The notes under the pieces were generated by a model. It was given only the letters and a program-made list of their open reading frames with translations. It searched no databases and was not told the origin of the DNA. Position numbers and translations under genes: made by a program. A DNA stretch of 64,000 nt from Bdellovibrionales bacterium (lineage in GTDB: Bacteria; Bdellovibrionota; Bdellovibrionia; Bdellovibrionales; JAGQZY01), in contig JANPLN010000025.1 in NCBI GenBank assembly GCA_031426555.1, forward strand, positions 74,199 to 138,198, written 5' to 3'. This document shows positions 2,373 through 55,478 of the stretch, piece by piece. Numbering within the stretch: position 1 is the stretch's first letter; the number at the start of each line of letters is the position of its first letter.

Positions 2373-3590
2373 TTAGTTAGGTAGAGTTCGTTCGCGGATG
2401 ACGAGGTAGGATAGCAACAAGGCCGTAAAAGACACAATCACGGCAAGCACTCCCACCCAGCCATAATTGTGTAAAAGTCCATTGGAGTCTCTCGTAACAA
2501 TGGCGCCCGCTATCACTGCGCCGAGTCCGGCCATGAGTTGTTGAATGCAGCCGACGAAGCTCATAAATGAGCCACGATACTCTGGACTTGGCACGCTGGA
2601 GATAAGTGCCAGTGCGGGAACCCAACGGGCATTCACACAAATAAAAAATAATCCGACGATAGTGAGCGTGAGATAGATGGATTGCACTGACAGATGCGTA
2701 ATCCACAAAGTTACAAAAATGGAAGAGATCAAACCGTACTTAAAAACCTTGTGTTTGCCAACTTGATCCGACAGGCGCCCCACAAACGGTCCCGTGATAA
2801 ATGTGAGCGTGCCGCCAACCAGGTAGATAAATGGCAGTTGAGATTCTTTAAGCCCCGCATTTGCAACGAGCGACGGACTTAAAAAGGGAATGATCATAAA
2901 TTGTCCCAAAACAAGAAAGCCACCAAAGGCCAAGGCCCAAAGCTGTCCCGGCGTCTTGAATATATGTAGGAGTGGATCTAAAACCGGTTTGCGCACTCGG
3001 TTTTCAACAAGGTGGGAAGATTGTTTCGGTATCCACAAAATGATCATTGGAAATATTAAAAACGAAACTCCGGCTAAAAATAAAAAGCTACTATGCCATC
3101 CCCACAGGTTCGCCAAAAACAAAGCAAAGGGAACACCAGCGATGGACGCTAGCGAAAACGCCGTGGAGATCACACCCATGGCAGTTCCGCGTTTTTCATA
3201 GGGGATGACGTCGCTCACGATGGAAAGAACCACGGAGTTTAAAACCCCACCAAATACGCCCGTTAAAGCACGGGATAGCAATAGGAGCTCGTAGGTAGGT
3301 GCAAGGGCGCATGCAAGGGTGCCAACGCAAAAACCAATAAAAAAGAATATCAGCAATTTCTTGCGATCGTACTGATCCATTATAAACGATGCTAAAAATC
3401 CCGAGATTCCCGCACAAAAGGTGTAGCTTGAAACCAACCAACTAAACTGCGTGGTAGTGATTGAAAAAAGACGCATGAGTTGAGGCCCTAAGGGCATCAA
3501 AATCATAAAATCAACAATGTGATTGAATTGAATGGCAGCAAGAATAAACAGCAGGATTTTCTCCTGCCGACTGAAGGAGATTTTCACCAA
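2373..3590 (-). CDS. MFS transporter (DHA1/AraJ-like)
   Basis: About 12 hydrophobic segments; motif A-like MDQYDRKK and GRLSDQVGK. Confidence 0.9.
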   Translation of the reverse strand: MVKISFSRQEKILLFILAAIQFNHIVDFMILMPLGPQLMRLFSITTTQFSWLVSSYTFCAGISGFLASFIMDQYDRKKLLIFFFIGFCVGTLACALAPTYELLLLSRALTGVFGGVLNSVVLSIVSDVIPYEKRGTAMGVISTAFSLASIAGVPFALFLANLWGWHSSFLFLAGVSFLIFPMIILWIPKQSSHLVENRVRKPVLDPLLHIFKTPGQLWALAFGGFLVLGQFMIIPFLSPSLVANAGLKESQLPFIYLVGGTLTFITGPFVGRLSDQVGKHKVFKYGLISSIFVTLWITHLSVQSIYLTLTIVGLFFICVNARWVPALALISSVPSPEYRGSFMSFVGCIQQLMAGLGAVIAGAIVTRDSNGLLHNYGWVGVLAVIVSFTALLLSYLVIRERTLPN

Positions 3591-51058: not shown

Positions 51059-51214
51059 CGTGATTGCAACGCAGGTCGCAATCTTCTCTGGCAACATTCT
51101 AACCTCAGCATATTTTACATTGTTACAAATGCGGTATTTACCTTTGAAAAGCGCAACCCCATATTGCCATTCTGCATTTCGGGGATTTGGAGAAACGCAA
51201 AACAAGGGGTTGCT

Positions 51215-53707
51215 ATGCGTGTGTTGGGGTTTTTGGGGATTTTACTTTCTTTTTCATTGGCGTCTGCAAACATCGAACTCGATCTTGGTTTAACTTACAA
51301 CCCCGACACGGGACGTGTGCTGGATGCTGAAAGTCGCCCTCTTGACCTTCTTCTCGATCGTGGACTGCGCGCTCAAGATATCAAAATTACAGAAATGGCT
51401 GTTCGCGAAGGAAAGAATCTTCTCCTCATCCACGCTAACTATTCCTTTTTTCTTTTTCAAAAAACAAATGCTGTGATTGGTTGGACGATAGTGGAAACTG
51501 CGAGCAATGAGTTCGCAAAAACGTATCGACAAAACGTTTTTAGCCTAAAAATTAACCACTCTGAAAAGTTCGGGATCTATGTACTGACAAGTCTATCGGG
51601 AGCACCAGGGCAAAGTTCTTCATATTATTTCAACGAAAACCCTTCCTTGAACCCCCAGGATACAGCTCGATTAGAGGACGCCGTTAAAAACTGGCTAGAT
51701 TTTCACTTTAACACCACTCCCCTTGATGCCTACTTAAACGACAAAGTAGGCGATCTGGGTTTGCGCACTATCGCTACAAAGATGGAAGACGTTCACAAAC
51801 CGATAGTCAACAACGGCAAACCCCAAATCCCAACAATCCCGGTTATAAACGAGCGCGGTGAGCGTACTGATGGCTGGACACTCGTGGAATCCTTTACGTC
51901 TGATTATTTAGAGGATGTGAAAAACGAAACCTACGAACAGATTGATGAATTGCGTGTCATCGAAGATCGAATTCTTAAAAACTTTTTAAAAGTCGAAGGT
52001 GGAAGCGTAAAACTTCTAGCCCCAGCTGGAGTTGGAAAATCCGTCCTTATGCGCAGAATTGCTTACCGCCTGCGCGTTGGCGATGTTCCAGAATCTCTTA
52101 AAAAATATAGAGTGCGTTTCTTTTCTGCTGCCTCCCTTGAGGCGGGCTCAAAGTTTGTCGGCACCATCGAAGCGCGAATGAATGCTATGATTGAAGTCTC
52201 AAAACAAGTGCCCTTACTTTGGTTTGTTGATGAGGCCCATAGTCTTGTGGGCGCAGGAATTTCGGAAGGTCGCCCCACAAATATTCTGCAATCGTTAAAG
52301 CCCTCGCTCGCCTCAGGCACCGTGAAGTGGCTAGCTGCTTCTACCCCCAGCGAGTGGGCGGCAGCCTTCGCAACGGATGATGCCATGGATCGACGTTTTG
52401 TTCGCGTGGATCTCACTATACCCGATAAAGAGTTGTTGCTAAAAATTCTCAACAAATGGCTGCTGAAGTACGACAAAGCTCCTCTCGCTGAAGCTCTTCT
52501 TGAGAAAGTTATTTTTTATTCCAACGAGTTTGGAGTTGAAGGAGCTCAACCCTCAAAAGCGACGTTGCTGTTAAATGAAGTTTACGCAAACGCCGATTTT
52601 AAAGATCAAAAATCGCCGATCACGGTGGAGAATATTCAAGAAGCCGCTCAAGAACTCTACAACGTGAATCCTTCGGAAATGGAAGTGGACAAAATCGCCG
52701 AACGCTTTTCCGTTCTACAAAATAAACTGCAAGAAATTATTGGGCAGGATCCTGCCAAAAGTGCGATCATGGCGCAAACCGTGCAAATCATGGCCGGAAT
52801 GCACGACCGCACAAAGCCGCGCTATCGTTTTATGTTGTCGGGAGACAAAGGCCTTGGAAAAACCGAAATCGTAAAGCTTTTTGCCCAGGCTATGAATCTT
52901 CCAGAGGGTCGCATTGTGATGAGCGAATTTGCATCGCCACACGAAATTGAATCTTTTAAAGCGCGTATCGCACAACTGGTGCGCATCCACCCAATGACCG
53001 TGCTGTCTTTTGATGAGTTCGAAAAAGCGCACCCCAAAGTTCAGCAAGCTCTTTTGGGAATTTTAGAGAGCGAATCCTTCACTTATACACTCCGCGAAGG
53101 CGGCGTGATTCGTTCTGCAACAGTGCAAATAAAAAATACCTCGGTATTTGTACTGACCAATGCCGGCGCCTCCTACCTCGCGTCCCGCCAGCTTGCAGAG
53201 CCAAAAGCGCCAAAGATTGGCTTTGCTCTCCCCGGCGTACAAGCCGAAAAAGCAGACACCCGACCTCCGTTTTATGAATGGGAATTCCGTCGGGCCATCG
53301 TCGCCGACGGAGTCGACTCCTACGTGCTGGATCGCATGGATTCAGTCATTCCATTTTGGTATTTTAGCCCAAAAGAATTTGCGCAGATTGTTTACATGCA
53401 CACACAAAAAATCATCGACGGGATCAACAAAAACTCCGCAACGCAATTTTCCTTCCACAACCTCAATCAGTTCGCCGCGGATTTTACAAGGCGCAATTTT
53501 TACCCCGAAGCTTCAGCCCGGGATGTTCTGCGCACACTCAATCAATACATTCGCCAAACCCTAGCCTCCATCGCCCTCAACAACCCCGGCGAAAAAGTAA
53601 AGCTCGGCTGGCACGAAGGAAACCTGTACCTGATGGACGAAGCTCAAGTCGCCGAAAACGAACCCACAGCACCACCGCAAACCTTGAGCTGCAAAGAACT
53701 GTTTTAA
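51215..53707 (+). CDS. ClpA/ClpB-like double AAA+ ATPase with N-terminal signal peptide
   Basis: MRVLGFLGILLSFSLASA|N; APAGVGKS and WFVDEAH, AGSKFVG, AMDRRF; GDKGLGKT and FDEFEKAHP. Confidence 0.85.
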   Translation: MRVLGFLGILLSFSLASANIELDLGLTYNPDTGRVLDAESRPLDLLLDRGLRAQDIKITEMAVREGKNLLLIHANYSFFLFQKTNAVIGWTIVETASNEFAKTYRQNVFSLKINHSEKFGIYVLTSLSGAPGQSSSYYFNENPSLNPQDTARLEDAVKNWLDFHFNTTPLDAYLNDKVGDLGLRTIATKMEDVHKPIVNNGKPQIPTIPVINERGERTDGWTLVESFTSDYLEDVKNETYEQIDELRVIEDRILKNFLKVEGGSVKLLAPAGVGKSVLMRRIAYRLRVGDVPESLKKYRVRFFSAASLEAGSKFVGTIEARMNAMIEVSKQVPLLWFVDEAHSLVGAGISEGRPTNILQSLKPSLASGTVKWLAASTPSEWAAAFATDDAMDRRFVRVDLTIPDKELLLKILNKWLLKYDKAPLAEALLEKVIFYSNEFGVEGAQPSKATLLLNEVYANADFKDQKSPITVENIQEAAQELYNVNPSEMEVDKIAERFSVLQNKLQEIIGQDPAKSAIMAQTVQIMAGMHDRTKPRYRFMLSGDKGLGKTEIVKLFAQAMNLPEGRIVMSEFASPHEIESFKARIAQLVRIHPMTVLSFDEFEKAHPKVQQALLGILESESFTYTLREGGVIRSATVQIKNTSVFVLTNAGASYLASRQLAEPKAPKIGFALPGVQAEKADTRPPFYEWEFRRAIVADGVDSYVLDRMDSVIPFWYFSPKEFAQIVYMHTQKIIDGINKNSATQFSFHNLNQFAADFTRRNFYPEASARDVLRTLNQYIRQTLASIALNNPGEKVKLGWHEGNLYLMDEAQVAENEPTAPPQTLSCKELF

Positions 53708-53710
53708 TGC

Positions 53711-53864
53711 GCTTTTAAGATTTTAAGAATGTTTGAATTTTTCGAAGGGTATTTTTTAAGACACGCCCATCCCTGGGCTCGCTCGCGAAATCAAACATCC
53801 TGTTTGCGAGAGGTCTTAAAAAGTACCCTTCGAAAAATTCAAACATTCTCAAAAACTTAAAAGC
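53711..53864. repeat. Long fold-back element C (52 bp arms plus branched core)
   Basis: 53711-53762 pairs with 53813-53864 (3 mismatches); core gacacgcccatccctgggctcgctcgcgaaatcaaacatcctgtttgcgagaggtc. Confidence 0.93.
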
Positions 53865-54063
53865 TCCCTCCGCCAAAAAACTTCACCTTCTGGCCGCAAG
53901 GACCTTCTACTAGGCATCAACGCATAAGAAAGTACGTGTGAAGTAGCACCGTATGCCTGAATTGCTGCTTAGAGATTTAGCGCGTTTGGAAAAGTTTGGA
54001 CACACTTTCGTATCGTAATAAGTTCGTGAGAATACGTTCAGCGTGGAAATAGTCTTACTTTCA

Positions 54064-54227
54064 GATTTTTGGGATTTAGAATTTAAATTCTTGGAAATTC
54101 AAAAAGGTTCTTTTTAAGACCTCTCGCAAACAGGATGTTTGATTTCGCGAGCGAGTCCATGGATGGACGTGTCTTTAAAAGAACCTTTTTGAATTTCCAA
54201 GAATTTAAGTTCTAAATCCCAAAAATC
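54064..54227. repeat. Long fold-back element D (57 bp arms), core inverted relative to C
   Basis: 54064-54120 pairs with 54171-54227 (2 mismatches); core is the reverse complement of the C core with 3 substitutions. Confidence 0.93.
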
Positions 54228-54236
54228 CGTCAGGGC

Positions 54237-55478
54237 TTATTTCGTGACTGGCAAATCGTAAAGGGAGTTGTAAAAGCGAAATGGCATTCGGGCGGTAAAG
54301 AGTCCGAAGGTGATGGCGCCTGCTGTGAGGGCCACGCGGTAGGCGATCACTCCCTGGGCTGGTGAACCTGCCGCGCTGTAAAAGGAAGAGAGCGCTAAGA
54401 GGCCGGGCACAAGTGACAGGATGCCCATGGTTGAAAATACTTGGCTTGGCCAATTGTAAATTCGCGCTAAAAATAAACTCACCAGGCCCACGGTGAGCGA
54501 GGCCGAGAATGAGGCCAGTACAAAGAGATCTGAGTTTTCAAAGCGTTCTAAAACAAAAACGCTCAGCAAACCGCAAATCAAAGCGCCAAAAAAAGCGCGC
54601 TTCGGAAGATGAAAAAATATGCAAAACGACAGAGTCATAATGGAGTGACAGAGCATGGTAAACCACAGCGTCTGCGTGTAATCCTGCACTGGCGCCACCA
54701 CTTTCGAAAGATCCTGTGCCATAAAACCCAAGCTGGTCATGCTGTTTTCGACGAGCAAATAGGAAACTCCCATCGCAACCAAAATAAGAATCGACTTCAT
54801 CATCTTTACTGTGCCCGAAACAAAGTTGTGTTCCGCAAGCTCACTGATCGCCGAGGTCAAAGTGAGTCCGGGGACAATCAAAATTAAACTTCCAATCACA
54901 AACACGGGAACCGCAAGTCCCATAAAGTGCGACGCCAGCACTGCCGCAATAAAAGCCACCAAACAGCCGATAAAATCGTTAAACACCCCGCTAAATTTTA
55001 ACTTCCGCGCCAGGGGTCTTTGCAAGATGTAAACGAACGCGGAAAGAAACCCGCTGAGAAGAGCTCCCACAAAGTTTCCGTAGCGCGGAAAGCTGGCCAC
55101 AAAGCCGATCAGAAAAGCGGCCAGTGTAACGAATAAAAACCGATATTTTTGTGTACGGAAAGAATTTAAATTCTCTGCCGCCGCAGCAATCGTCATCTCG
55201 CCCGTGCTGATTTTTTCGAGGATGGAATCATAAAACAACATGTCGGTAAAGTTAATGGTGCTTTCGGTGGCGCGCTCAAGGGTGGTTACCACCTCGCCAT
55301 CTTTTTTAGCGGTCACAAACACCGCCGTCGGGGTGGCGTACACGTCGCAGTGAAAACCATTCACTGGACCCGCTTGCATAATGCGCTCTTCTAAACGCGT
55401 GATGGGGCCGCCGGTCATCAAATATCCTCGCGCACACTCACCCGTCACTTTTAAAAAATCACTCATCGATGTTTTCAT
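54237..55478 (-). CDS. ThrE family threonine/serine exporter
   Basis: G.PITRLEE, TPTAVF, LIVPGLTLTSAISEL...NFVSG and LVPG motifs; about 10 TM. Confidence 0.88.
   Translation of the reverse strand: MKTSMSDFLKVTGECARGYLMTGGPITRLEERIMQAGPVNGFHCDVYATPTAVFVTAKKDGEVVTTLERATESTINFTDMLFYDSILEKISTGEMTIAAAAENLNSFRTQKYRFLFVTLAAFLIGFVASFPRYGNFVGALLSGFLSAFVYILQRPLARKLKFSGVFNDFIGCLVAFIAAVLASHFMGLAVPVFVIGSLILIVPGLTLTSAISELAEHNFVSGTVKMMKSILILVAMGVSYLLVENSMTSLGFMAQDLSKVVAPVQDYTQTLWFTMLCHSIMTLSFCIFFHLPKRAFFGALICGLLSVFVLERFENSDLFVLASFSASLTVGLVSLFLARIYNWPSQVFSTMGILSLVPGLLALSSFYSAAGSPAQGVIAYRVALTAGAITFGLFTARMPFRFYNSLYDLPVTK

Follow-up and report, generated by a model that had tools for sequence, protein, structure and literature searches.

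The window analysed here, a 64,000-nucleotide stretch of Bdellovibrionales DNA, contains long hairpins whose arms pair almost perfectly within each copy and differ strongly between copies, around a conserved loop region. This raises the questions of what these structures are, how they reached their sites, and what keeps their arms matched. The features concerned are the following.

1480-1926, + strand: RF-1-domain gene, ending just before element A
1944-2129, - strand: element A, a 65-bp stem with a variant core at about 2006-2067
about 2268-2345, + strand: element B, half a core and one arm, the truncated divergent partner of A
2373-3590, - strand: MFS transporter gene, ending just beyond B
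51164-53707, + strand: Clp-like AAA+ ATPase gene, its stop codon 3 nt before element C
53711-53864, - strand: element C, a 52-bp stem and core, with GGA loops on the - strand and the terminal repeat lost
53760-53815, - strand: core of C, a three-way junction with loops CAGGAUG and CAGGGAUG
53865-54063, no strand: spacer of the C/D divergent doublet, 199 nt, with a terminal-repeat-like fragment at 53998-54008
54064-54227, + strand: element D, a 57-bp stem and core, with the inner part of the terminal repeat at its outer ends
54118-54173, + strand: core of D, with loops CAGGAUG and CAUGGAUG
54237-55478, - strand: ThrE exporter gene, its end 9 nt beyond D

The three complete hairpins of the original prediction, A, C, and D, are real, with arms of A (1944-2008/2065-2129; 65 nt, 94% matched) slightly longer than the 1952-2121 claimed. 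The arms of the oppositely oriented elements C (53711-53762/53813-53864) and D (54064-54120/54171-54227) comprise 52 nt (94% matched) and 57 nt (96% matched), respectively. Four hairpins with arms of at least 25 bp are present in the window, compared with none in 20/20 local shuffles, where the longest chance arm was 23, and the DNA-fold z-scores of A, C, and D range from -6.4 to -8.9. As claimed, C and D are related by a compensatory C-G to T-A change in the small hairpin, and A carries a swapped second stem; the small hairpin of A is imperfect, and its variant core combines a four-way-type second arm with an ACGGAU loop. The orthologous site of C holds the same core on diverged but self-matched arms in two congeners, and that of B holds a single full-length copy in one congener (L051). 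Since unitigs of a public sequencing run, which is probably the source sample and thus not independent, show no differing letters in the arms of C and D, and since single-contig genomes of relatives have equally perfect arms (34/35, 53/56, 35/35, and 34/34), the matching is not, as far as testable, a product of assembly smoothing.

Elements A, C, and D belong to a dispersed repeat of Bdellovibrionales, in which a conserved junction core with two loops is carried by a long self-complementary stem, as is evident from the core itself, its covariation, and its distribution across the order. The genome of the window (G000; 3.14 Mb, 72 contigs) yielded 64 long-hairpin calls, and a search with R1, a covariance model of the core built from 40 cores (alignment A1), returned 32 cores at E < 1e-5 and one weak one. 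The exact core pattern occurs at 22 loci in the genomes searched, every one of them labelled Bdellovibrionales, and R1 matches 43/150 genomes of this order; within a 150-genome sample of the phylum, only three genomes outside the order gave matches, all weak. A metagenome scan returned 10 matches (six with arms of at least 30 bp, one in a tandem array, three probably due to chance), and viral contigs returned none to the one core pattern used. In A1, 90.7% of cells are paired compared with 38–54% in slid controls, a figure obtained from related sequences from which the structure itself was read, and 21/26 pairs show two-sided changes. Copies outside G000 have stems of at least 17 bp in 61/70 cases, with 2423/2507 arm pairs Watson-Crick. 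This covariation supports the proposed selection on secondary structure, in a family that extends well beyond the copies of the window. No neighboring gene recurs among 73 neighbors in G000 or at 22 distant loci.

Hairpins of related design were also observed. Another conserved core of approximately 88 nt is carried by the same type of long stem at three sites in G000 (C15:42850-43085, C30:73076-73291, and C42:7298-7510), and a second, of 35–41 nt, at 13 sites such as C2:105812-105978; some of these hairpins end in the terminus described below. Three single-contig genomes (L175, L176, and L180) have retained one copy of the present family behind rplJ-rplL, with strongly diverged, self-matched arms, and a metagenome contig (L264) contains a tandem array of cores. 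The 5' arms are T-rich (941 T to 677 A in G000; 961 to 669 in 70 loci of relatives).

The conserved branched core of the original prediction stands, but its strand does not: the GGA loops and the wobble bias of the stem both point to the opposite strand, on which the core folds into a three-way junction whose two loops follow the pattern C-(N)NNGAN-G. Among 90 distinct copies, GGA is present in the second loop of 80, the first loop of 67, and both loops of 61; CGA and UGA variants recur, and AYGGAY is found in loop 1 of a single copy and in loop 2 of 33. Arm wobbles, scored as G.U on the GGA strand, favor this strand by 26:6 in G000 (11:3 per copy, p = 0.057) and by 35:18 outside it (17:6 per copy). 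Wobbles inside the core lean the opposite way (18:35), approximately 29 of the 35 falling in three junction-adjacent columns that look mis-registered. A transcription-linked C-to-T bias on the strand of the neighboring mRNA would give the opposite excess to that in the arms. The folded species would be the GGA strand, its core presumably kept by selection.

In G000, 29/32 copies have their GGA strand directed into the 3' end of an opposite-strand gene, and the same antisense orientation is seen at 19/22 distant loci, some of which are orthologous. All six complete doublets are divergent, with 120–344 nt between copies, and A/B represents a seventh doublet. There is no replication-strand bias by contig GC skew, a rough measure (17 lagging, 15 leading), and no promoter motif was found upstream of either strand, sigma-70 signals (3 vs. 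1 of 32) showing no enrichment.

The proposal that the arms are kept matched as they diverge is supported at site C. Arms at this site differ between species at 10–13 of 47 positions compared with 0–3 mismatches within a copy, and in three non-independent pairwise comparisons 31 differences, 18 of them transversions, are concerted between the arms, compared with seven that are one-armed. Gaps are common to both arms at sites on contigs C37 and C39. Such matching could in principle be the work of RNA alone, each copy being a small RNA (acting as a CsrA sponge or as a signal for 3'-end processing) in which selection for RNA pairing preserves the entire stem, with no copying at the DNA level. The covariation and pairing of the core described above, the G.U bias of the arms, the fixed orientation to gene ends, and the persistence of cores at orthologous sites after loss of the termini described below are all consistent with this account, as is the repression of a hag-leader reporter by CsrA of Bdellovibrio bacteriovorus (PMC13443453). 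However, the 18 concerted transversions offer no wobble intermediate, the gaps affect both arms, plain REP hairpins of G000 also have matched variable arms, and orthologous sites show loss or replacement of the core; we regard selection on RNA pairing as an improbable sole cause. Concerted transversions, shared gaps, and spacer inversion are instead the expected products of template switching, for which arm homogenization and spacer inversion have been described in yeast (PMC8604942); replication template switching is therefore the likely process by which the arms are kept matched.

Hypermutability of the arms was considered and rejected. Arm identity (72–79%) exceeds that at fourfold sites (56–68%), and the arms at site C44b are 94–100% identical, from which it follows that arm rates vary without being hypermutable.

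Comparison of orthologous sites yielded a series of alleles. At the site after thrE, G000 and two congeners share the core of the present family, G004 carries another one, and G002 and G005 have simple hairpins. At the site on C35, the core is present in G000; in G003 another REP takes its place as the centre, and in G001 the element as a whole is inverted. Among the 22 loci with the exact core pattern, those orthologous to G000 sites also display a core swap (L034), deletion of the central core (L046), a flip (L040), and a small unrelated hairpin in place of the core (L043), although the single core flip could alternatively be an assembly error or an independent insertion. The comparison with empty loci that had been suggested revealed such alleles at the site on C19, which is filled in G000 and G003, differently filled in G002, and empty in G004 and G005; none of the orthologous sites compared offered a clean empty allele with a recognizable junction or a duplicated target.

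Young copies in the genus (g1) end in a terminal 17-mer, GGTACGGACACACTTTT, which also ends hairpins with two unrelated cores and one coreless hairpin. In G000, the terminus is present in 5/27 F1 cores and an inner remnant in 13/27, and 4/16 hairpins with the two unrelated cores have the terminus. Full copies, with inverted termini around a hairpin-forming spacer, are found on C35 and C37. The hairpins of the window are old copies of the repeat, with termini absent from A, B, and C and a remnant in D. A tandem 11-mer array lies beside a terminus in L034 (approximately 330-420).

The terminus leads to a candidate enzyme. A RAYT-type gene is flanked on both sides by GGTACGGACACACTTTT in inverted orientation in the congener G001 (L065) and in G036 (L247), a genome of another family; in G003 (L064) the terminus lies upstream of the gene, which is at a contig end. 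The flanked gene of G036 is 51% identical, in the class of the closest non-congeneric homologs, and this genome contains 15 short coreless doublets of GGTACGGACACACTTTT. The terminus pattern was matched in 6/61 genomes, and cores inside these termini were seen only in genus g1. The RAYT-type protein has HYH and YxxxNP motifs, as in the HUH/YxxxNP definition for RAYTs (PMC6006769), and scores 40 bits against PF01797 (cut-off 23) and 73.5 against NF047646, under the cut-off of 80. The arrangement of terminus and gene matches that of RAYT/TIRYT systems as described in PMC6006769 and PMC3733652.

The suggested HUH/RAYT link thus holds for G001, G003, and G036, but not through a gene in G000 itself. 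No cognate RAYT gene was found in the 72 contigs of G000, although it is present in the congeners G001 and G003; another REP occupies the orthologous site, and the best RAYT matches of G000 are two other RAYTs, 36–38% identical, with different repeats. The window was correctly predicted to lack a transposase, as 0/12 Y1 transposase hits of the genome fall there, and none of the 12 has an element nearby, the nearest long hairpin being at least 4 kb away. RAYT-like matches occur in 38/43 core-positive vs. 61/107 core-negative genomes, among which kin are not independent. Because young copies end in the terminal repeats of a RAYT-type gene, and because variable spacers with compensatory changes are a trait already known from REPINs (PMC3116915), the family in part matches known MITE/REPIN elements.

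Several other Y1-related features of G000 were observed. Two RAYT-type genes (C37:14796-15398 and C44:15835-16473) each have their own repeat, with a shared pattern that gives 126 matches over the two strands; relative to L059, the start region of the C37 gene appears to be missing. Approximately ten Y1-like paralogs of about 80% identity have a conserved upstream region and no REP flanks, and several are broken (C25:12336-12836, C25:58365-58850, and on C7, C9, C20, C66, C69, and C72; L002, L005-L009). A multi-hairpin side module located between arm and terminus gave five pattern matches (C37:7205-7275, C19:1-90, C30:73290-73370, C64:75170-75230, and C37:15400-15450), one of them directly behind a RAYT gene.

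Fold-back synthesis, raised in the original prediction, offers another origin for the arms, in which the host flank is copied in inverted form upon insertion, so that each arm consists of local host DNA. The arms in G142 and g35, which have no shared terminus, are compatible with this idea, and two G003 loci (L251 and L252) show long mirrored flanks around terminus hairpins; these two loci, however, lie at contig ends, a position prone to fold-back errors of assembly, and their mirrored flanks are likely errors of this kind, which can mimic host-copied arms. In G000, similarity to the young C35 arm reaches p <= 0.01 for 9/24 other arms, including that of C (0.01) but not those of D (0.08) and A (0.14), and for 21/25 arms the overlap with a long ORF does not exceed 3 nt. 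Host-copied arms are not the rule in G000, and as a general origin they are very unlikely.

A more serious competitor to RAYT carriage is that the core and arms constitute a mobile unit of their own, moved by another enzyme, with an HNH nuclease as candidate, and that this unit became the centre of a RAYT repeat as a secondary event within this genus. The 43/150 genomes with the core mostly lack the terminus, and 5/43 have no RAYT match; in G142, 20 cores with long arms are accompanied by no RAYT match at 1e-10 and by no shared terminus among seven copies inspected. In G074, 47/72 cores lie within 1.5 kb of an HNH paralog, 6/6 fetched HNH loci carry cores, and 26/35 HNH matches have a core within 1.5 kb, a zone that makes up approximately 5% of the genome. 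One G074 arm resembles a g1 arm with a score reached by 0/2000 shuffles, in a single hand-picked pair. In contrast, cores are found at 0/24 HNH-homolog loci in G000, G003, G004, and G108, neither HNH nor RAYT genes occur within 1.5 kb of 22 distant core loci, in 11 further stretches (G142, G018, and G010), or at 10 metagenome loci, and the G074 cores flank HNH genes in both orientations and at varying distances. An independent mobile unit of this kind is unlikely, if less so than the other alternatives, and it is compatible with RAYT carriage in g1. The G142 cores without RAYT and the HNH clustering in G074 indicate that the core and stem are older than the GGTACGGACACACTTTT terminus; the repeat may have captured the core, or the core may have entered the repeat.

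The HNH genes of G074 form a group of approximately 28 paralogs (71–85% identical) of a 266-residue protein with a C-terminal HNH domain, most of them flanked by cores (e.g., L087:500-1300 on the - strand, L118, L123, L128, L133, L138, and L143), and this group is possibly a spreading element. More distant HNH homologs give 14–18 matches in four other genomes. GIY-YIG domains were limited to one open frame of 570–641 residues per genome, in five genomes.

Taken together, it is reasonably probable that the repeat spread in the genus as cargo between RAYT-type (Y1/HUH) termini, with arms matched by template switching. The transposase would have moved a unit of terminus, arm, core, arm, and terminus to the 3' ends of genes. 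The termini would then have decayed, and one arm would have been copied repeatedly onto the other, a process that may also have flipped or deleted the centre. The elements also provide an uncluttered natural example of copying between the arms of bacterial palindromes.

Comparison with Rfam, as had been proposed, produced no family at gathering score anywhere in the window and a likeness below the cut-off. Element D scores 41.6–42.4 bits against RF01731, the TwoAYGGAY motif (a table row in PMC2864571), for which the gathering threshold is 43, and four other copies among 20 loci score 36.6–40.5 bits; these sub-threshold matches lie on the GGA strand only in 5/5 copies, and the core alone gives no match to RF01731. 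Matches to miRNA precursors were dismissed, as they score on both strands and derive from the long stem alone. The conserved junction nucleotides might be taken to indicate a self-cleaving ribozyme or a template for a reverse transcriptase, a reading we consider extremely unlikely. No ribozyme family is among the weak Rfam hits, conservation is concentrated in loops of a protein-binding type, and the linked reverse transcriptase gene that was sought is absent, with no RVT_1 match in G000 or G018 and single matches in three other genomes.

The loops bring CsrA into consideration. CsrA binding has been proposed for TwoAYGGAY (PMC4333381), and CsrA acting on an RNA would by analogy be the most likely binding partner here. 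The csrA gene is present in G000, but it is nearly universal in the order, with matches in 139/150 genomes and in 41/43 core-positive ones. Against this stand the presence of GGA in loop 1 of only 67/90 copies, the CGA/UGA variants, the 19 cores of G004, a genome with no csrA match, the lack of a promoter signal, and the antisense orientation of 29/32 copies. Binding of CsrA to an RNA is the most likely function, and remains putative; we hold it tentatively, at somewhat less than even chances. If CsrA does bind, the elements are candidate CsrA antagonist RNAs in Bdellovibrionota, for which a literature search on Bdellovibrio CsrA and small RNAs found no such RNA described. It is interesting to speculate, as a rather unlikely extension, that TwoAYGGAY-type cores are regulatory RNA modules on any mobile DNA, hitchhiking on RAYT repeats in genus g1 and on HNH loci in G074, and released, for instance by RNase III, as two-site CsrA decoys antisense at gene ends. 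In that case, the copy number of a mobile element would tune a global regulator in predatory bacteria. Like CsrA/RsmA sites and sponge RNAs, the elements have GGA in hairpin loops and two sites per unit (PMC13443453, PMC4333381); unlike the sponge RNAs, they are dispersed repeats antisense to gene ends, with no promoter signal, and have often lost GGA from loop 1.

No description of this repeat family was found in the freely accessible main texts on TwoAYGGAY, REPIN/RAYT, TnpAREP, and Bdellovibrio small RNAs. The present analysis contributes a RAYT-type gene cognate to the terminus, the doublets that lack a core, the series of alleles, the concentration of cores at HNH genes in G074, and the counts of loops and orientations. 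With REPINs and TIRYTs, the elements share termini in inverted orientation, found also around a class-2 Y1 gene (PMC3116915, PMC3733652, PMC6006769), a variable hairpin-forming spacer with compensatory changes, sites beside stop codons, and decayed remnants. They differ in that the unit is 150–250 nt long, its structured, interchangeable centre outlives the termini, and the core is also found without termini. In contrast to canonical REPs there is no GTAG/GTGG foot, the terminus beginning with AGGTAC and forming an inverted repeat of the TIRYT type.

The closest counterpart of the core is TwoAYGGAY. Both have two hairpin arms on a long, poorly conserved basal stem, and the CAUGGAUG loop of D aligns exactly. 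Both are multicopy and intergenic, and form divergent doublets at similar spacing, those of TwoAYGGAY in Pseudomonas being 68% divergent with a median of 249 bp (bioRxiv 10.64898/2026.09.22.753630). Both are connected to REPs; the same preprint describes strong copy-number variation and REP arrays beside the RNAs in Pseudomonas, and calls unresolved how TwoAYGGAY-type repeats multiply and how mobility is linked to regulation. Its main text makes no mention of Bdellovibrio, RAYT, or HNH. The present family offers a named candidate enzyme together with its terminus, substrates with and without a core, and alleles that are empty, swapped, or flipped, which make the question of TwoAYGGAY multiplication testable. 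In contrast to TwoAYGGAY, the best score here is 42.4, below the threshold of 43, the first loop is a C-NNGAN-G pentaloop, so that AYGGAY is not in both loops, and the core is nested between transposase-type termini. The core resembles TwoAYGGAY, yet it is not assigned as a member because the core alone is unmatched and AYGGAY is rare in loop 1. In genus g1, the element is best described as a TwoAYGGAY-like module nested in a RAYT/TIRYT repeat.
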